From: an uncultured Puniceicoccaceae bacterium
Lineage (GTDB): Bacteria; Verrucomicrobiota; Verrucomicrobiia; Opitutales; Oceanipulchritudinaceae
Reading direction: 5' to 3'
DNA: 64,000 bases
Assembly: GCA_963933835.1 (NCBI GenBank)
Contig: CAWVVV010000003.1
Location: 160,001 to 224,000, forward strand
Positions 22,888-28,709 of the stretch are shown piece after piece (positions within the stretch are counted from its first letter, which is position 1; each line of letters opens with the position of its first letter). Under the pieces are notes generated by a model. That model did no database searches. It saw only the letters and a program-made list of their open reading frames with translations, and had not been told where the DNA came from. The position numbers and the translations under genes are program-made.

Positions 22888-23106
22888 ATGAAACGCAAAA
22901 AGCCCTCCATCTATAGCCTCATACCGTGGTCCTTCGCCGCCTGCGGTCTGCTGATCGCGCTCGGCAATCTTTTCGGGCTAACTGGCCTCCAATTGCCGAT
23001 CTTTCCCGTCGTTCAAGACGCCGTCGGTTTGATCATCAACGCAGTCTTCCTGCTCGCCATCGGCTTCATTCCAGTGGTGATCACGCATCTATTTCAAAAA
23101 GCCTGA
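22888..23106 (+). CDS. Small two-TM protein, 72 aa, coupled to resB
   Basis: Basic N-terminus and two hydrophobic helices; TGATG overlap with the next gene. Confidence 0.6.
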   Translation: MKRKKPSIYSLIPWSFAACGLLIALGNLFGLTGLQLPIFPVVQDAVGLIINAVFLLAIGFIPVVITHLFQKA

Positions 23107-24293
23107 TGAACCCTGCCTTCAAGTTTTTCAGTTCCATCCGGCTCACCGTCTACCTTCTGTTTGCGAGCACTCTCCTGATCTTCGTGGGAACACTGGATCA
23201 GGTTCAAGACGGCATCTACCTGGCCCAAAAACGCTACTACGAGCATGTCTTCGTCATCTTCACTCGGGGGCGGTTTCAGCTGCCAATACCGGGAGGCTAC
23301 CTGATCGGACCTCTCCTCATTCTGAATCTGCTTGCGGCTCATTTCCGTTACTACCGCATGGGTTGGCGAAAGCTCGGGATCGCCGCTCTTCACCTTGGCG
23401 TGATCGCTCTGCTCGTTGGACAACTCATTACTCAAACCTCCCAAAAAGATAGCTTCATGTGGCTCTCAGAAGGCGAGCGTAAGAACTACCTTGAATCCTT
23501 CCACGAAGATGAATTGGTCGTGATTGATCGATCAGATGACGCAGTGAACCGCATCGTGAGCTGGCCCGTCGCGGCCTTCGAAAGCGGGGATGCGCTCCTT
23601 CAGCACCCGATGCTCCCCTTTCAGCTGAAGATCAAGGCTTATGCCCTCAATGCCGGAATTGGCCCGATCGACGCTTTGGCATCGGGCGCTATCGGCGGAT
23701 TCGACCGAGGCCTCGCTTCACGGCGCAACTTTGGCATGACAAAGCTCCCCCCCACCTACGCTGATGGTGAGCGCAATCGCATGACGGCCGCTGTAGAAGT
23801 GATCGGAGCGGATGGTTCCCTCGGGCAGTGGATGGTCTCGAATATCTTTCGTCAGGCCCAACCCGTGAGAGTTCCAACCTCACCACAGACTTTCGTGTAT
23901 CAAAATCGCGAATACGAAATCGCGCTACGCTTCAAACGCGCCTACCTACCCTCACAGATAGAGCTTCTCGACTTTAAGCACGATCGCTATCCGGGCACTG
24001 AGATACCCTTCAACTTTTCAAGCAAGGTGAACATCATCGGCGAGACAAGCGGTGACGAGCGTTCGACCCTCATCTACATGAACCACCCCTTGCGCTACGC
24101 TGGATACACTTTCTTCCAAGCGTCTTTTGCTGAAAACGACACGATGTCGATGTTTCAAGTCGTGAAAAACCCGGGCAGGTTAATCCCGTATGTGGCCTGC
24201 GCCATCATCTCGATAGGCCTGCTTTATCAGTTCGGATTCAGCCTCATCGTATTTGCCCTAAAGTCCCGCGAGCGGAGGACGCAGACCTCATGA
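23106..24293 (+). CDS. resB: Cytochrome c biogenesis protein ResB/CcsB (system II)
   Basis: ATG 23106; FFSSIRLTV.LL, GI..LHLG..LL.G, DF.HDRYPGTEIP.NFSS.V, IYMNHPLRY.GYTFFQAS. Confidence 0.85.
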   Translation: MNPAFKFFSSIRLTVYLLFASTLLIFVGTLDQVQDGIYLAQKRYYEHVFVIFTRGRFQLPIPGGYLIGPLLILNLLAAHFRYYRMGWRKLGIAALHLGVIALLVGQLITQTSQKDSFMWLSEGERKNYLESFHEDELVVIDRSDDAVNRIVSWPVAAFESGDALLQHPMLPFQLKIKAYALNAGIGPIDALASGAIGGFDRGLASRRNFGMTKLPPTYADGERNRMTAAVEVIGADGSLGQWMVSNIFRQAQPVRVPTSPQTFVYQNREYEIALRFKRAYLPSQIELLDFKHDRYPGTEIPFNFSSKVNIIGETSGDERSTLIYMNHPLRYAGYTFFQASFAENDTMSMFQVVKNPGRLIPYVACAIISIGLLYQFGFSLIVFALKSRERRTQTS

Positions 24294-26122
24294 AACCTAA
24301 GCTCCTGACGATCGGCGCCCTCGCCCTCCTTCTCCTGCTCGCCCTTGGAACACTGAGTCGCCACCTGCGCACAGAAGAGCCTATGAGCGGGCTGGCGGTG
24401 GATCGATTGATGCAACTTCCTGTCCTCGAGGGTGGACGTGTTAAGCCTTTGGATACGGTGGCGCGGAACGCTCTTCTCGTGATCAATCGAAAGCAGCACT
24501 ACGTCAGCGAAGAGGATAAAAAGGTCCCTGCCTCCGATTGGCTCGCTGAACTCATGCTCGATCAGCAGAGTGCATCGCAAAGAAAGATCTTCAGGATCGA
24601 TCATCCGGAAATCGTTGGCTTGCTCGGATTTCACAATGAAGAACAGAAGTTTTTCTCCTTAGCCGAAATCGCTCCACACATCGAGACGCTGCAAGAACAG
24701 TTTGCCTTGATCGACGAAGAACCTGCCCGACGAACAGTTTACCAGCGAGAACTGCTAAAACTCTACAATGCGCTTTCAGTGTATGACGGCCTCGCCAGCA
24801 CGTTCATCGTCCGCCCACTTTTCGGTGATCCACAAACCGAGATTCAAAACCGTGACCGCGTACTGGAGGATCTTCGCACCCTCGAACCAGGTGATGAGAA
24901 TTACGCGAATGCGGCCAACGCTTGGCGCCTCATGGAAGGTCATTATCTAAGCCAAGATCGTTCCAAGGTCCACACGATCTTCCCAGACGGCAGTGAAGAC
25001 TGGATGACTGTCGCCGCAGCGATGGCTAAGCGGAAGCCTGCGAATGAGCTCCTCAAGCACTACGCGGCGATGGCTACTAGTTTCAAAGAGGGCAACAAGG
25101 CGACCTTCTCAACCGCTTTGGATGGCATCGAAGGCGTCTTGCATACGATCGACTTGGCAGACTCAAAAGACTTAAGGCTCGAGTACCGTTTCAACCACTT
25201 CGCGCCCTTCGTCTTCACGCTCGAAATCTACCTCATCGCGTTCTTTGCCGTCTTGCTCGGATGGCTTTTTCTGCCCCGCACCTTTATCATCGGAGGCCTC
25301 GTGCTCCTAACCCTCGGCTTCATCTTTCACACTTTTGGAATGTGGGCACGGATGGAGATTCAGAACCGCCCACCGGTAACAAACCTGTATTCCTCGGCTA
25401 TTTTCGTCGGCTGGGGCTCTGCCCTACTCTGTCTCGTATTGGAGTTTTTCCGGCGCGACGGCATCGCCACCGCAGCCGCCGCGCTCATTGGCGTGCCTAC
25501 GCTCATCATTGCTCACCACTTGAGCTTAAGTGGCGACACGATGGAAATGATGCGCGCTGTGTTAGACCATAACTTCTGGCTAGCGACGCATGTCATTGTC
25601 GTCACAGCGGGTTACTCTGCGACCTTTCTTGGAGGTGTATTAGCAATCCTATACATTTTCCATTACCTGTATGCCGGCAAGGAGGGGCAGAACCTCAAAG
25701 CGATCGAACGGATGGTCTATGGCATCATCTGCTTTGCCCTTCTCTTCAGTTTCGTGGGGACAATTCTCGGAGGCATCTGGGCGGATCAGAGCTGGGGACG
25801 TTTCTGGGGCTGGGATCCAAAAGAAAACGGAGCGCTCATGATTGTGCTCTGGAATGCGCTCATCCTCCATGCTCGATGGGCGAAGGTTGCGAAGCCAATT
25901 GGGCTCATGCAGCTGGCCATCACTGGAAATATCATCACGGCGTGGTCGTGGTTCGGAACGAACCTGCTCGGCGTTGGCCTTCACTCCTATGGTTTCACCG
26001 AGAGTGGATTCTTTTGGCTTATGGCCTTTGCATTCTCGCAAGTTGCCATTATCTGTGTCGCCTTTATCCCGACTATCGTCGAGGCGATCAGAAAGTCCAA
26101 AGGCTCTAAGCAAACGACCTAG
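24290..26122 (+). CDS. ccsA: Cytochrome c biogenesis protein CcsA/ResC with large N-terminal periplasmic domain
   Basis: GRVKPLDT.AR, RPPVTNLYSS, NFWLATHV, WWD loop GGIWADQSWGRFWGWDPKENGAL, GLHSYG. Confidence 0.92.
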   Translation: MKPKLLTIGALALLLLLALGTLSRHLRTEEPMSGLAVDRLMQLPVLEGGRVKPLDTVARNALLVINRKQHYVSEEDKKVPASDWLAELMLDQQSASQRKIFRIDHPEIVGLLGFHNEEQKFFSLAEIAPHIETLQEQFALIDEEPARRTVYQRELLKLYNALSVYDGLASTFIVRPLFGDPQTEIQNRDRVLEDLRTLEPGDENYANAANAWRLMEGHYLSQDRSKVHTIFPDGSEDWMTVAAAMAKRKPANELLKHYAAMATSFKEGNKATFSTALDGIEGVLHTIDLADSKDLRLEYRFNHFAPFVFTLEIYLIAFFAVLLGWLFLPRTFIIGGLVLLTLGFIFHTFGMWARMEIQNRPPVTNLYSSAIFVGWGSALLCLVLEFFRRDGIATAAAALIGVPTLIIAHHLSLSGDTMEMMRAVLDHNFWLATHVIVVTAGYSATFLGGVLAILYIFHYLYAGKEGQNLKAIERMVYGIICFALLFSFVGTILGGIWADQSWGRFWGWDPKENGALMIVLWNALILHARWAKVAKPIGLMQLAITGNIITAWSWFGTNLLGVGLHSYGFTESGFFWLMAFAFSQVAIICVAFIPTIVEAIRKSKGSKQTT

Positions 26123-26686
26123 CCACTGCCTTCTGAGTTAATTTCTCGATCTCAGGTTTAAGGACATTTTCGTAGTAATCTGGCTCTACCCCATGCGTCA
26201 GCGTAATCCCCAACTTGTTCCGCATAAATTCTTCGATCGTTTGCCAGCCCTCTTCAGGAATATTGATCTTCTTGGTGTAAGCACAAATCGTTAAAACATC
26301 TTCGAGCTCCCGAATACGAGAGCCAGCAGATAGGATGCGCTCGGCCACTTTGAGTCGAATTTCCAGCTCTACGCGGTCGAGGGGTTTAGCTAGAAAATCA
26401 TCTACGCCCACCCACATCGCTTCGTAGTAGTTCTCCTTCTGGTCCACGTTTGCCGTCAACATGATGACGTAGGTGTAGTTGCTCTCTGGATGTTCTCGAC
26501 GAGTTTTAGCCCATCCATACGAGGCATACGCCAGTCACTGATCACCAAACGCGTGGGCGAGGTACGGTATTGATTCCATGCTTCTTCGCCGTCTTCCGCT
26601 ACGAACACAGTATGACCCAGCTCTTCTAGAATAGTTACGAGGAGCTTCCGGGAAATAAAGTCGTCTTCGGCAATAAGAATGTTCAC
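26106..26686 (-). pseudogene. Response regulator (REC + C-terminal output domain) split by a frameshift near 26490
   Basis: Frame A: ILIAEDD...ISDWRMPRMDGL.LVENI. Frame B: REHPESNYTYVIMLTA...GVDDFLAKP. Together they make one REC domain. The split could be an assembly error. Confidence 0.8.
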
Positions 26687-26781
26687 GGATTGTATCTAAG
26701 TTCATCGCCCAACTGGAGCCTCTCTTTAGCCAACGATCAGGCTTTAGCGTCATATGAGTGATTCCCTTCCAGTCAGATACG

Positions 26782-26812
26782 AAAAAAGGCTACCCCTTTT
26801 CAGGGGCAGCCC
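26782..26812 (-). terminator. Intrinsic terminator after the hybrid kinase
   Basis: Minus strand GGGCTGCCCCTGAAAAGGGGTAGCCTTTTTT. Confidence 0.75.
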
Positions 26813-26865
26813 TATATAGCTATGTTCGTTCGTTTATTGTTCTGACTTACTAAAGACGCAAATTC

Positions 26866-28320
26866 CTAGGAATGACTCCGTTGATGGCTATTATCATGGC
26901 AGGCGTGCACAGGGCGCAGGGCCTGCTGTAATGGTAATTCCAGACGGAAGCGTGCCCCCTTCGGGGACAAATTCTGCATCGAGACGGCACCTTGGTGTGC
27001 CTCGGCGATCGAGCGGCAAATCGAAAGTCCAATCCCTGTGCTCTTTTCTCCCGCAGTTGGCTTATTTGATGTGCGGCAAAATTCCTTGAACAAGAGCCCT
27101 TGTTCACTCGGCTTGACCCCAGGACCCTCGTCTTCCACATCAAAATAGCAGAGGCCTTCATCCTGCCAAACCACTAGCTTCACAGAACTTTGAGGACTGC
27201 TAAACTTAATCGCGTTGCTGAGGAAATTCTCTAGGATTCGACGCACCTTCTTTTCATCGCAATCGAACCGGCTCAAGGAGCCCCGGCCTTCGAATTCGAG
27301 GCCGATCTGTTTTTGCGACGCAGCCACCTTAAAGAGGTTCACCAATGAAAGACCGGTCTGCTCAGGACAGAGAGGCTGAAGGTCCAGTGATACCGCGTTA
27401 GAATCCATCGACGACATGTCATCACGCATCAGATCGCTCAGGCCGAGGATCGCACTCAGGGGATTTCTCAAGTCATGGGAAGCGATACGCAAAAGGCGGT
27501 CCTTCGCCTTGTTCAACGTTTCGAGTTCATTGATGTTGTTTGCACGAAAGTTTGAGAGGACTCGAATCTTGAGGTGGGTGCGGATCCGGGGAAGCGCCTC
27601 ATGTGGATTAAAAGGCTTTCCGATGTAGTCCGAGCCTCCAGCATCGAATCCGCGAGCGATGAACTCCGTCTCCGTCTTGCCCGTGACAAAAATTATCGGG
27701 ATCTCTTTAAATTCTTCGATCGCTTTCAGACGCTGACAGACCTCGTAGCCATCCATCTGGTTCATTACAATATCGAGGAGAATCAGGTCGGGGATCACTT
27801 CTTGTGCGAGCCAAACAGCCTCTTCTCCAGATTTTGCCTCGAAGACTTCGAAACTCGCTCGCTCAAGAATGAAGCGGAGTTTTTTGCGAATCATCGGACT
27901 GTCTTCAACGACGAGGATCTTGCAGCCTGCTAGATCAACTTCCTGTTCGTTTATCGGCATCGGCGGTTTCGTCTCCTGACGGGGTGCCCGAGGCGTGGCC
28001 AAAAATTCTCCCTCGAGGGTCTCCTTTACCCGCTGGCGTGCATAGTCCTCAAATGAACTCATCCCAATATCGACGAATTCGCCCTGAGCCTGAGCTAAGG
28101 CTATTGTGCCAACGGAGACAACCTCCTGGCGGTCTAGCTCGGGAGGTAATTGCTCGGCCAGATCAGCCACAACTTCGTCGACCAAAGGTAAAAACTGACT
28201 CGTTCGACTGATATCGAATCCACCAGAACTAGACAGCGTATTGCTGCCTCGATCGATCGATAGCGCCTCGGCTTTCGGAAAGGACTTTAGGGCCTCTTGA
28301 TTGGATTCTGGAACAAACAT
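26866..28320 (-). CDS. Hybrid histidine kinase: sigma-region-2-like N-terminus + REC + shortened HisKA + HATPase_c
   Basis: REC (KILVVEDS, DLILLDIVM..MDGYEVC, IFVTG, DYIGKPF), H-box ASHDLRNPL, N box ENFLSNAIKFS, G1 DEGPG, G2 TGIGLSIC. Confidence 0.9.
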   Translation of the reverse strand: MFVPESNQEALKSFPKAEALSIDRGSNTLSSSGGFDISRTSQFLPLVDEVVADLAEQLPPELDRQEVVSVGTIALAQAQGEFVDIGMSSFEDYARQRVKETLEGEFLATPRAPRQETKPPMPINEQEVDLAGCKILVVEDSPMIRKKLRFILERASFEVFEAKSGEEAVWLAQEVIPDLILLDIVMNQMDGYEVCQRLKAIEEFKEIPIIFVTGKTETEFIARGFDAGGSDYIGKPFNPHEALPRIRTHLKIRVLSNFRANNINELETLNKAKDRLLRIASHDLRNPLSAILGLSDLMRDDMSSMDSNAVSLDLQPLCPEQTGLSLVNLFKVAASQKQIGLEFEGRGSLSRFDCDEKKVRRILENFLSNAIKFSSPQSSVKLVVWQDEGLCYFDVEDEGPGVKPSEQGLLFKEFCRTSNKPTAGEKSTGIGLSICRSIAEAHQGAVSMQNLSPKGARFRLELPLQQALRPVHACHDNSHQRSHS

Positions 28321-28709
28321 AGATCTCGAATGAACAGTCAGAGTTGCGTCCTAATTTCGTTGCTCCGCTCCGTTCTTGGGCTTCGCATCGTCAGGGTAAA
28401 ACAGTCTCCGACCTGTAAATTCGGAATCCCCCACCACTACTTGCGTTTAAAGAACTTGCTAAAAAGAAATACGACAAACGACAAGGGGCTTATCTAACTC
28501 ACAAAGAGGCGCTTACGGATCTTTATTGAGCGATATTTCAATGCTTCGAGGCATCTAAGCGCACTCTTTTCATCATCTCTTTACAGCCGTATTTGTAGAT
28601 CCTTACACATTCTTTACGTCCGGCATTCACACCGCGAAAGTAGAGAAAGAAAAAGCAGTGGCCCATCGATGCGACGAGCCACTGCTTAGGAAACTGAATT
28701 GCTACGGAC

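Follow-up and report, generated by a model that had tools for sequence, protein, structure and literature searches.

What is a piece of a flagellar sigma factor doing at the head of a histidine kinase? This question is raised by a 484-residue protein encoded in the window analysed here, a stretch of 64,000 nucleotides from an uncultured Puniceicoccaceae bacterium (assembly GCA_963933835.1, contig CAWVVV010000003.1, positions 160,001 to 224,000). The initial annotation had read residues 43-107 of this protein as region 2 of a FliA-type (sigma-28) factor joined to a REC-HisKA-HATPase kinase, and had proposed a signalling system built on sigma factor mimicry; the residues at 28000..28194 read as quoted there and the coordinates map exactly. 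It is now confirmed that residues 43-107 are a true homologue of the FliA/WhiG sigma-2 domain, with a match far beyond chance, and the N-terminus appears to descend, in a form specific to this lineage, from the sigma-2 domain (regions 2.1-2.3) of Opitutales FliA, and is fused ahead of a cytoplasmic REC-HisKA-HATPase kinase in which Pfam recognises no sensor domain. We favour, with a probability of about one half, the reading that this domain is a partner-binding module derived from sigma-28, of which the present genome holds a decaying copy.

Homology of the N-terminus to sigma region 2

The NCBIfam family TIGR02479 (FliA_WhiG) matches the N-terminal 130 residues with an E value of 1.9e-8 over profile positions 4-67 of 224, and it also matches all four orthologues tested (best E 2.3e-9). 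The sigma70-ECF family reaches only E 0.041-0.11, and the best families are FliA/WhiG. The score of 34.4 bits is far under the full-length cut-off of 189.6 bits. In Pfam, no family matches the first 130 residues of the kinase; Sigma70_r2 fails on the window protein and reaches E 0.11 in one of four orthologues, so the homology is visible only by NCBIfam and by profile searches. The expectation of a profile match was therefore borne out for the FliA/WhiG families and failed for Pfam Sigma70_r2. A profile of the N-termini of four orthologues, compared with the PDB, finds WhiG (6pfj, E 5e-6) and FliA (1rp3, E 1.9e-4), together with 9wsf and 6pmi. Of 1.84 billion representatives searched exhaustively with a profile, 227 matched at E<=1e-3, the top match being a fusion orthologue of 518 amino acids, and when 30 of the 150 matches listed were scanned with Pfam, all 29 that are not fusions carried PF04542 (Sigma70_r2) at the matched stretch. 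A profile built from seven fusions recovers the FliAs of the family with E values of 3e-16 to 4e-11. Furthermore, the domain aligns without gaps over 66 residues to the FliA of 11 related genomes, with identities of 26-39%, and the best of these (26/66, in the genomes G024, G021 and G027) equals the identity to the most distant fusion orthologue. The homology claimed by the initial annotation is thus upheld by the family match, the PDB profile matches and the gapless FliA alignment.

The predicted structure agrees with the sequence. The AlphaFold2 model of the N-terminus, computed from an alignment of the seven orthologues only, has helices at residues 44-54, 64-85 and 90-107 with predicted local distance difference test (pLDDT) values of 82-87, and the leader before them and the linker after them are disordered (pLDDT 31-50 in the leader). 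In a VIA-align comparison with 48,161 representative chains, the first 12 rows are all sigma factor entries (Z 10.4-8.4), among them the N-terminal domain of SigE, a sigma-70 fragment, WhiG, sigma-28, pro-sigma-K, SigB, RpoS and sigma-32, so that the sigma-2 fold anticipated for the N-terminus alone was recovered. The top 10 matches of Foldseek are likewise all sigma-2 domains, with root-mean-square deviations of 1.8-3.9 A over 63-77 columns; since its best E value is only 0.083, the structural match supports the evidence from sequence and does not stand alone. A search of the ESM Atlas with residues 30-125 gave scores of 0.89-0.90 for short clusters that contain Sigma70_r2 alone and for one unnamed cluster, which serve as leads only.

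Changes relative to FliA

Residues 45-107 include 24 columns at which 10 or more of the 11 FliAs agree, and 11 of these are kept in at least 6 of the 7 fusions (P45, L46, V47, P59, S69, G71, L75, A78, F90, A94 and E105), mostly in regions 2.1-2.2. Seven further columns are kept in none or one of the fusions (G74, A92, G100, L103, D104, L106 and R107), and five of them fall in the last helix (residues 100-107). In all 11 FliAs of the family, region 2.3/2.4 reads RIRGAxLDELR and then LDxLPRxxRxK. None of the seven fusions keeps G100, L103, D104, L106 or R107 of that helix, the changes to E100, F106 and L107 are common to 5-7 of the 7, and where the LDxLPRxxRxK motif would follow the last helix there is now a variable, Pro-rich linker. 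In addition, G74, which is invariant in the 11 FliAs, is Ala or Val in every fusion, and residue 66 is acidic in every fusion.

The initial annotation had regarded the core-binding region 2.2 as degenerate, a view that the wider comparison overturns, for 6-7 of the 7 fusions retain S69, G71, L75, A78 and an acidic residue 66, and it is the RIRGA..DELR helix that has been lost instead. The altered part is the DNA-facing C-terminal helix, and not the core-binding regions 2.1-2.2. The acidification reported for the window protein proved to be a property of the whole family: over 66 residues, the seven fusions have net charges between -4 and -10 (-10 for residues 42-107 of the window protein), and all 11 FliAs lie between -1 and +4. 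Domain scans also bear out that no sigma region 3 or 4 follows and that a Pro-rich linker leads into REC; positions 68-224 of the TIGR02479 profile are unmatched, and REC stands there instead. With no regions 3 and 4, with other residues in place of the RIRGA..DELR helix and the LDxLPR motif, and with an acidic surface, the sigma-2-like domain probably no longer works in transcription. The fusion as a whole is not a sigma factor, given the missing regions 3 and 4 and a score far under the family cut-off.

Orthologues, distribution and conservation

The same architecture, with an intact HisKA domain, is found in the proteins P0002, P0003, P0004 and P0005 and in genes of the genomes G001, G002 and G012 (P0005 being the G002 protein). 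A family-wide profile search places the fusion in 4 of 37 family genomes and 2 of 15 genera, with a clear gap in score between the fusions (158-209 bits) and the FliAs (at most 61 bits). A pattern scan of one genome per species (185,579 species) found it in only three species besides the window's own, whose titles name Opitutales, Puniceicoccaceae and Verrucomicrobiota. Metagenome proteins also contain the fusion, and among the matches listed at the level of 50%-identity representatives there is only one fusion cluster. Since it recurs in relatives, the fusion is neither an assembly chimera nor a one-off fragment, which were the outcomes that the initial annotation had taken to count against it. 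A 546-residue open frame in the genome G042, considered as a further fusion, was rejected, as it holds a complete FliA (profile positions 1-221).

Conservation along the protein is uneven. Mean pairwise identity is 0.23 in the leader (residues 1-39), rises to 0.56 in the sigma-2-like domain, falls to 0.28 in the linker, and reaches 0.77 in REC and 0.68 in the catalytic domain. The sigma-2-like segment has 21 invariant columns across the seven orthologues, and the start of the kinase (MFxP) is also kept. A conserved island of this kind between eroded flanks points to a functional domain rather than to a chimera or a relic, and selection appears to maintain it in one small clade of Verrucomicrobia, which are marine and Puniceicoccaceae-like. 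The literature, covered in part and at the level of abstracts, yielded no description of an architecture that combines FliA region 2, REC and a kinase.

Flagellar background of the carriers

The genomes G002 and G012 have FlhA, FliF, FliP, rod proteins, FliA above the cut-off and flagellins, and FlhA and FliA are also present in G001, which is 69% complete. In the window's own genome (G000; 1.94 Mb, 97% complete, 10 contigs), family searches found no FliA above the cut-off and no FlhA, FliF, FliP or rod protein. The fusion thus seems to belong to flagellated lineages that have a separate FliA, with the window genome as the exception. As regards the flagellar setting suggested by the initial annotation, it was recovered in the three other carriers, which have fliA and flagellar export genes, and failed in G000, which has neither, where Pfam FlgM is unmatched and only a weak FlgM-like gene is found.

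G000 retains one Flagellin_N protein and a weaker neighbour, at about 55.2-58.0 kb of G000:C1. The former has 346 residues (L031 3229..4269, plus strand) and matches Flagellin_N only (E 2.8e-13); the latter, of 512 residues (L031 4426..5964, plus strand), matches Flagellin_N weakly, and a DegT-type aminotransferase gene adjoins.

A FlgM-like candidate partner

Pfam FlgM (PF04316) has no match in G000 and gives nothing firm in the genomes of the family. In G012, a 99-residue ORF (open reading frame) lies in the gene order FliD_C, lipoprotein, FlgM-like, FliS, and it has homologues in G000, G001, G002 and G006 (E 2.5e-6 to 3e-3), in each of which the FlgM-like ORF is flanked by a similar lipoprotein gene on one side and by an HDOD gene on the other. 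The best PDB match of a profile built from the five homologues is FlgM of P. aeruginosa (9wsf_B, E 0.011), which makes the assignment as FlgM-like suggestive and not proof. The copy in G000 encodes 96 residues (L035 1447..1737, plus strand, equal to G000:C3:158964-159254), ends 747 bases before the window, and has an overall identity of 62% to its counterpart in G002. In G000, which has kept the FlgM-like gene, no FliA-derived domain was found other than the one on the kinase. The retention of a FlgM-like gene without FliA fits a pairing with the sigma-2-like domain, and it fits equally a recent flagellar loss whose leftovers have not been cleared.

A sigma-28-type promoter pattern (TAAA N14-16 CCGAWA) was sought in 36 loci and matched twice, never upstream of the fusion gene and once just upstream of the lipoprotein/FlgM-like/HDOD cluster of G006; as about two chance matches are expected by a rough estimate, the pattern was set aside as evidence.

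Possible roles of the domain

If the domain is a partner-binding module, it would tie the kinase to a natural partner of sigma-28, and the kinase would sense that partner or sequester it. The favoured partner would be the FlgM-like anti-sigma factor and the second choice the clamp helices of RNA polymerase, the former being the more likely of the two. FlgM covers the determinants for RNA polymerase binding on both sigma-2 and sigma-4 of FliA. A more elaborate proposal, which we consider rather unlikely, is that sigma factor mimicry arose independently from the flagellar sigma-28: the domain would bind the FlgM-like anti-sigma, the receiver and kinase would gate or read out this binding, the export of FlgM at completion of the hook-basal body would be wired into a phosphorelay, and the pair may persist here after the loss of FliA. 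The models are silent on such gating. Complex prediction of the domain (residues 36-112) with its own REC (residues 132-255) from alignments of seven rows scored 0.00 and 0.00, a result that, with controls not run, speaks neither for nor against it. The AlphaFold2 model of the two domains, from an equally shallow alignment of seven rows, has a predicted template modelling (pTM) score of 0.48 and pLDDT below 50 in the linker (residues 110-125), and offers no readable orientation of the domain on REC. The listed Foldseek rows for this model align REC only (115-134 columns), with no PhyR-like two-domain match among them, and are uninformative on PhyR-like packing.

The remaining explanations can be weighed on the pattern of kept and altered residues. 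Isolated sigma-2 domains are the main core-binding part of sigma factors, and the domain might hold the beta-prime clamp helices of RNA polymerase itself and so place the kinase on the core enzyme, or compete with sigmas, with no role for FlgM. The retention of P45, L46, V47, P59, S69, G71, L75 and A78 in 6-7 of the 7 fusions, together with the acidic residue 66 in all seven, agrees with such docking, as does the loss of the DNA-contacting helix rather than of regions 2.1-2.2. However, the retained positions belong largely to the hydrophobic core or to helix packing, as expected in any folded sigma-2 domain, the replacement of G74 and the strong acidification alter the surface, and the partly covered literature, again at the level of abstracts, yielded no kinase tethered to RNA polymerase through a sigma domain; we hold direct docking to be unlikely. 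A similar judgement, slightly lower, applies to a recycled helical module that would act as a structural, dimerising or REC-modulating N-terminal cap, with no link to a sigma-28 partner left. A new surface is indeed indicated by the fusion-specific conserved residues E100, F106, L107 and D92 and by the reversal of charge, gene neighbourhoods show no flagellar link, and the window genome kept the kinase gene after losing its flagellar genes; yet all three other carriers are flagellated and have a separate FliA, and the two-domain model, with its pTM of 0.48 from seven rows only, gives no sign of a fixed cap. Very improbable is a functionless relic, in which the eroded 5' end of a fliA paralogue would have become attached to a REC-kinase gene by chance and be carried along with no role. 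In its favour are that nothing beyond regions 2.1-2.3 is left, that the segment escapes Pfam Sigma70_r2 and that the clade is very small. A neutral remnant, however, would erode like its flanks, and here the identity is 0.56 in the segment versus 0.23 (leader) and 0.28 (linker), in two genera between which the kinases as a whole are just 47% identical, with 21 invariant columns and a confidently predicted fold.

Several observations weigh against the partner-binding module with a decaying copy. The FlgM-like assignment is weak, as Pfam FlgM reaches E 0.027 in only one of the five homologues and the PDB match stands at E 0.011. Its gene is not adjacent to the kinase, and the lipoprotein/FlgM-like/HDOD cluster also occurs in G006, which has FliA and no fusion, and is therefore not specific to fusion carriers. 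The genes around the fusion are not the same in the four genomes, so that context yields no partner. The FlgM-like, flagellin-like and kinase genes may all be leftovers of a recent flagellar loss, and the evidence that G000 itself lacks flagellar genes comes from family searches of an assembly that is 97% complete and consists of 10 contigs. Finally, the window protein shows no excess of amino acid changes over P0002, which is 80% identical to it and has an intact DHp domain (16-18 unique changes versus 22-27 in P0002, with P0003 or P0004 as outgroup), which suggests that the deletion in its kinase core, described below, is either recent or tolerated.

State of the kinase and of its neighbouring regulator in this genome

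Compared with its orthologues, the window kinase has lost 32 residues by an in-frame deletion (junction at about 27420/27421), which removed the loop and most of the second helix of the DHp domain. The deleted residues are present in all six orthologues, and the HisKA profile is covered over positions 1-31 of 66 in the window protein versus 1-65 of 66 in P0005. The identical 484-residue protein is recorded on 10 contigs, and every member of the 90%-identity cluster that spans the site has the same deletion junction. In another assembly the same gene, also with the DHp deletion, is split by a frameshift inside REC into P0157 (174 residues) and P0159 (310 residues), which reflects either further decay or a sequencing error there.

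A response-regulator gene lies 180 bases downstream of the kinase, and a frameshift cuts it in two. The same-genus relative G001 has the gene whole (about 205 residues; L026 7825..8502). It consists of REC and a C-terminal part of about 85 residues that has no Pfam match and carries the conserved stretch LTICAYTKKINxPxEGWQTIEEF. In three independent studies, contigs run through both the DHp junction and the regulator frameshift with no gap, and therefore neither lesion is an assembly error of this record. As flagellar genes and fliA were not found, the second DHp helix is lost and the neighbouring regulator is frameshifted, the window copy is probably no longer a working kinase. Its reading frame nevertheless remains open, and both the sigma-2-like domain and the FlgM-like gene are undamaged.

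Comparison with known systems

To our knowledge, PhyR is the one paradigm of sigma factor mimicry; it is derived from an ECF sigma factor and confined to Alphaproteobacteria. Its sigma-like domain sits beside a receiver and acts as a phosphorylation-gated trap for an anti-sigma factor, and both the occlusion of this domain by REC and the binding of NepR have been demonstrated (PMC4598750). Both proteins have a sigma-derived, non-transcribing domain N-terminal to a receiver, and the sigma-like part binds a partner of the real sigma factor in PhyR and may do so here. They differ in that PhyR is of ECF origin with sigma-2 and sigma-4 and ends after REC, whereas the present domain comes from FliA (group 3), consists of sigma-2 only and is followed by a HisKA-HATPase kinase (PMC4598750). 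One is alphaproteobacterial and the other belongs to the Verrucomicrobiota. The fusion would therefore be PhyR-like in concept, but without the ECF origin, the sigma-4 subdomain or the end after REC that mark PhyR.

With FliA and WhiG, as known from complexes with FlgM (PDB 1rp3, 1sc5, 9wsf) and of WhiG with RsiG (6pfj, 6pfv), the fusion shares homologous regions 2.1-2.3, an identity of up to 39% to the FliA of related Opitutales and a predicted fold that superposes; in contrast to them it has no regions 3 and 4 and no RIRGA..DELR..LDxLPR, is acidic, scores 34 bits versus 189.6, and is joined to a two-component kinase. Residues 135-465 follow the common layout of REC-HisKA-HATPase kinases, with H282, D183 and an intact HATPase_c domain, but those kinases have no sigma-derived N-terminus, and the window copy also misses the 32 DHp residues. 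The HptB-HsbR-HsbA system of P. aeruginosa sets a precedent, as in it a two-component phosphorelay controls FlgM by partner switching and acts on sigma-28 through the sequestration of FlgM (PMC6482189). The FlgM binder there, HsbA, is a separate anti-sigma antagonist of the STAS type and is not sigma-like, so that the likeness is one of logic only (PMC6482189).

If the proposed pairing is true, this would be a second case of sigma factor mimicry, independent of the first, derived from group 3 and made of sigma-2 alone with a kinase, which would mean that sigma domains can be reused as protein-binding modules in signalling. It would also connect the sigma-28/FlgM checkpoint of the flagellum directly to signalling by phosphorelay. 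With one candidate partner and seven orthologues, all from marine Verrucomicrobia that are uncultured, the family is of a size that makes direct testing feasible, and the window genome is a natural experiment in which flagellar genes are not found and the kinase core is damaged, with the sigma-like domain and the FlgM-like gene intact.

Gene layout and neighbouring genes

The features of the locus are collected in Table 1. In REC, D140, D183, T213 and K235 are invariant in all seven orthologues. Terminator-like hairpins follow both the kinase stop and the upstream glgC-like gene, and the kinase gene may for this reason be a transcription unit of its own; terminator-like sites are not more numerous than in shuffled sequences (3 vs 2.6), and the argument is one of position alone. 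One metatranscriptome contig of 157 bases falls on 26828-26978, and as DNA can occur in such libraries, transcription is not claimed from it.

Table 1. Positions in the window of the kinase gene, its parts and the adjoining features
Feature	Position	Strand	Description
Kinase ORF	26866..28320	minus	484 residues: leader, sigma-2-like domain, linker, REC, truncated HisKA/DHp, HATPase_c
Leader	28195..28320	minus	residues 1-42; little conserved except M1, F2 and P4; predicted disorder
Sigma-2-like domain	28000..28194	minus	residues 43-107; derived, by alignment, from FliA regions 2.1-2.3; three predicted helices; acidic
Pro-rich variable linker	27922..27999	minus	residues 108-133; occupies the place of FliA region 2.4, LDxLPRxxRxK gone
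REC	27589..27918	minus	residues 135-244; Pfam PF00072, E 3.3e-27
HisKA remnant	27412..27507	minus	residues 272-303 with H282; Pfam HisKA profile positions 1-31 of 66
HATPase_c	26926..27258	minus	residues 355-465; PF02518, E 1e-22, profile positions 2-110 of 111
Terminator-like hairpin	26786..26813	minus	12 pairs and a T run, directly 3' of the kinase stop
Second terminator-like hairpin	28653-28687		after the upstream glgC-like gene
Response-regulator gene, split	26106..26686	minus	ORFs of 76 and 118 residues; frameshift near 26480-26485

In G001, a MoCF_biosynth (MogA-like) gene (L026 8526..9053, minus strand) stands between the kinase and the regulator, where the window (26687-26865) has the 180 bases and the hairpin. 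In G002, the fusion gene is preceded by a CheY-like single-REC gene (L024 6063..6464, plus strand) and by a gene for an MshEN/T2SSE ATPase of the PilB/MshE type (L024 6537..8345, plus strand), a neighbourhood that is not common to the window, G001 or G012. On its other side, the regulator of the window adjoins ResB-like and CcsA-like ORFs of cytochrome c biogenesis at 22926-26122 on the plus strand, their identity being read from the translations, and ORFs of similar size and order adjoin the regulator of G001 (L026 4848..7819).

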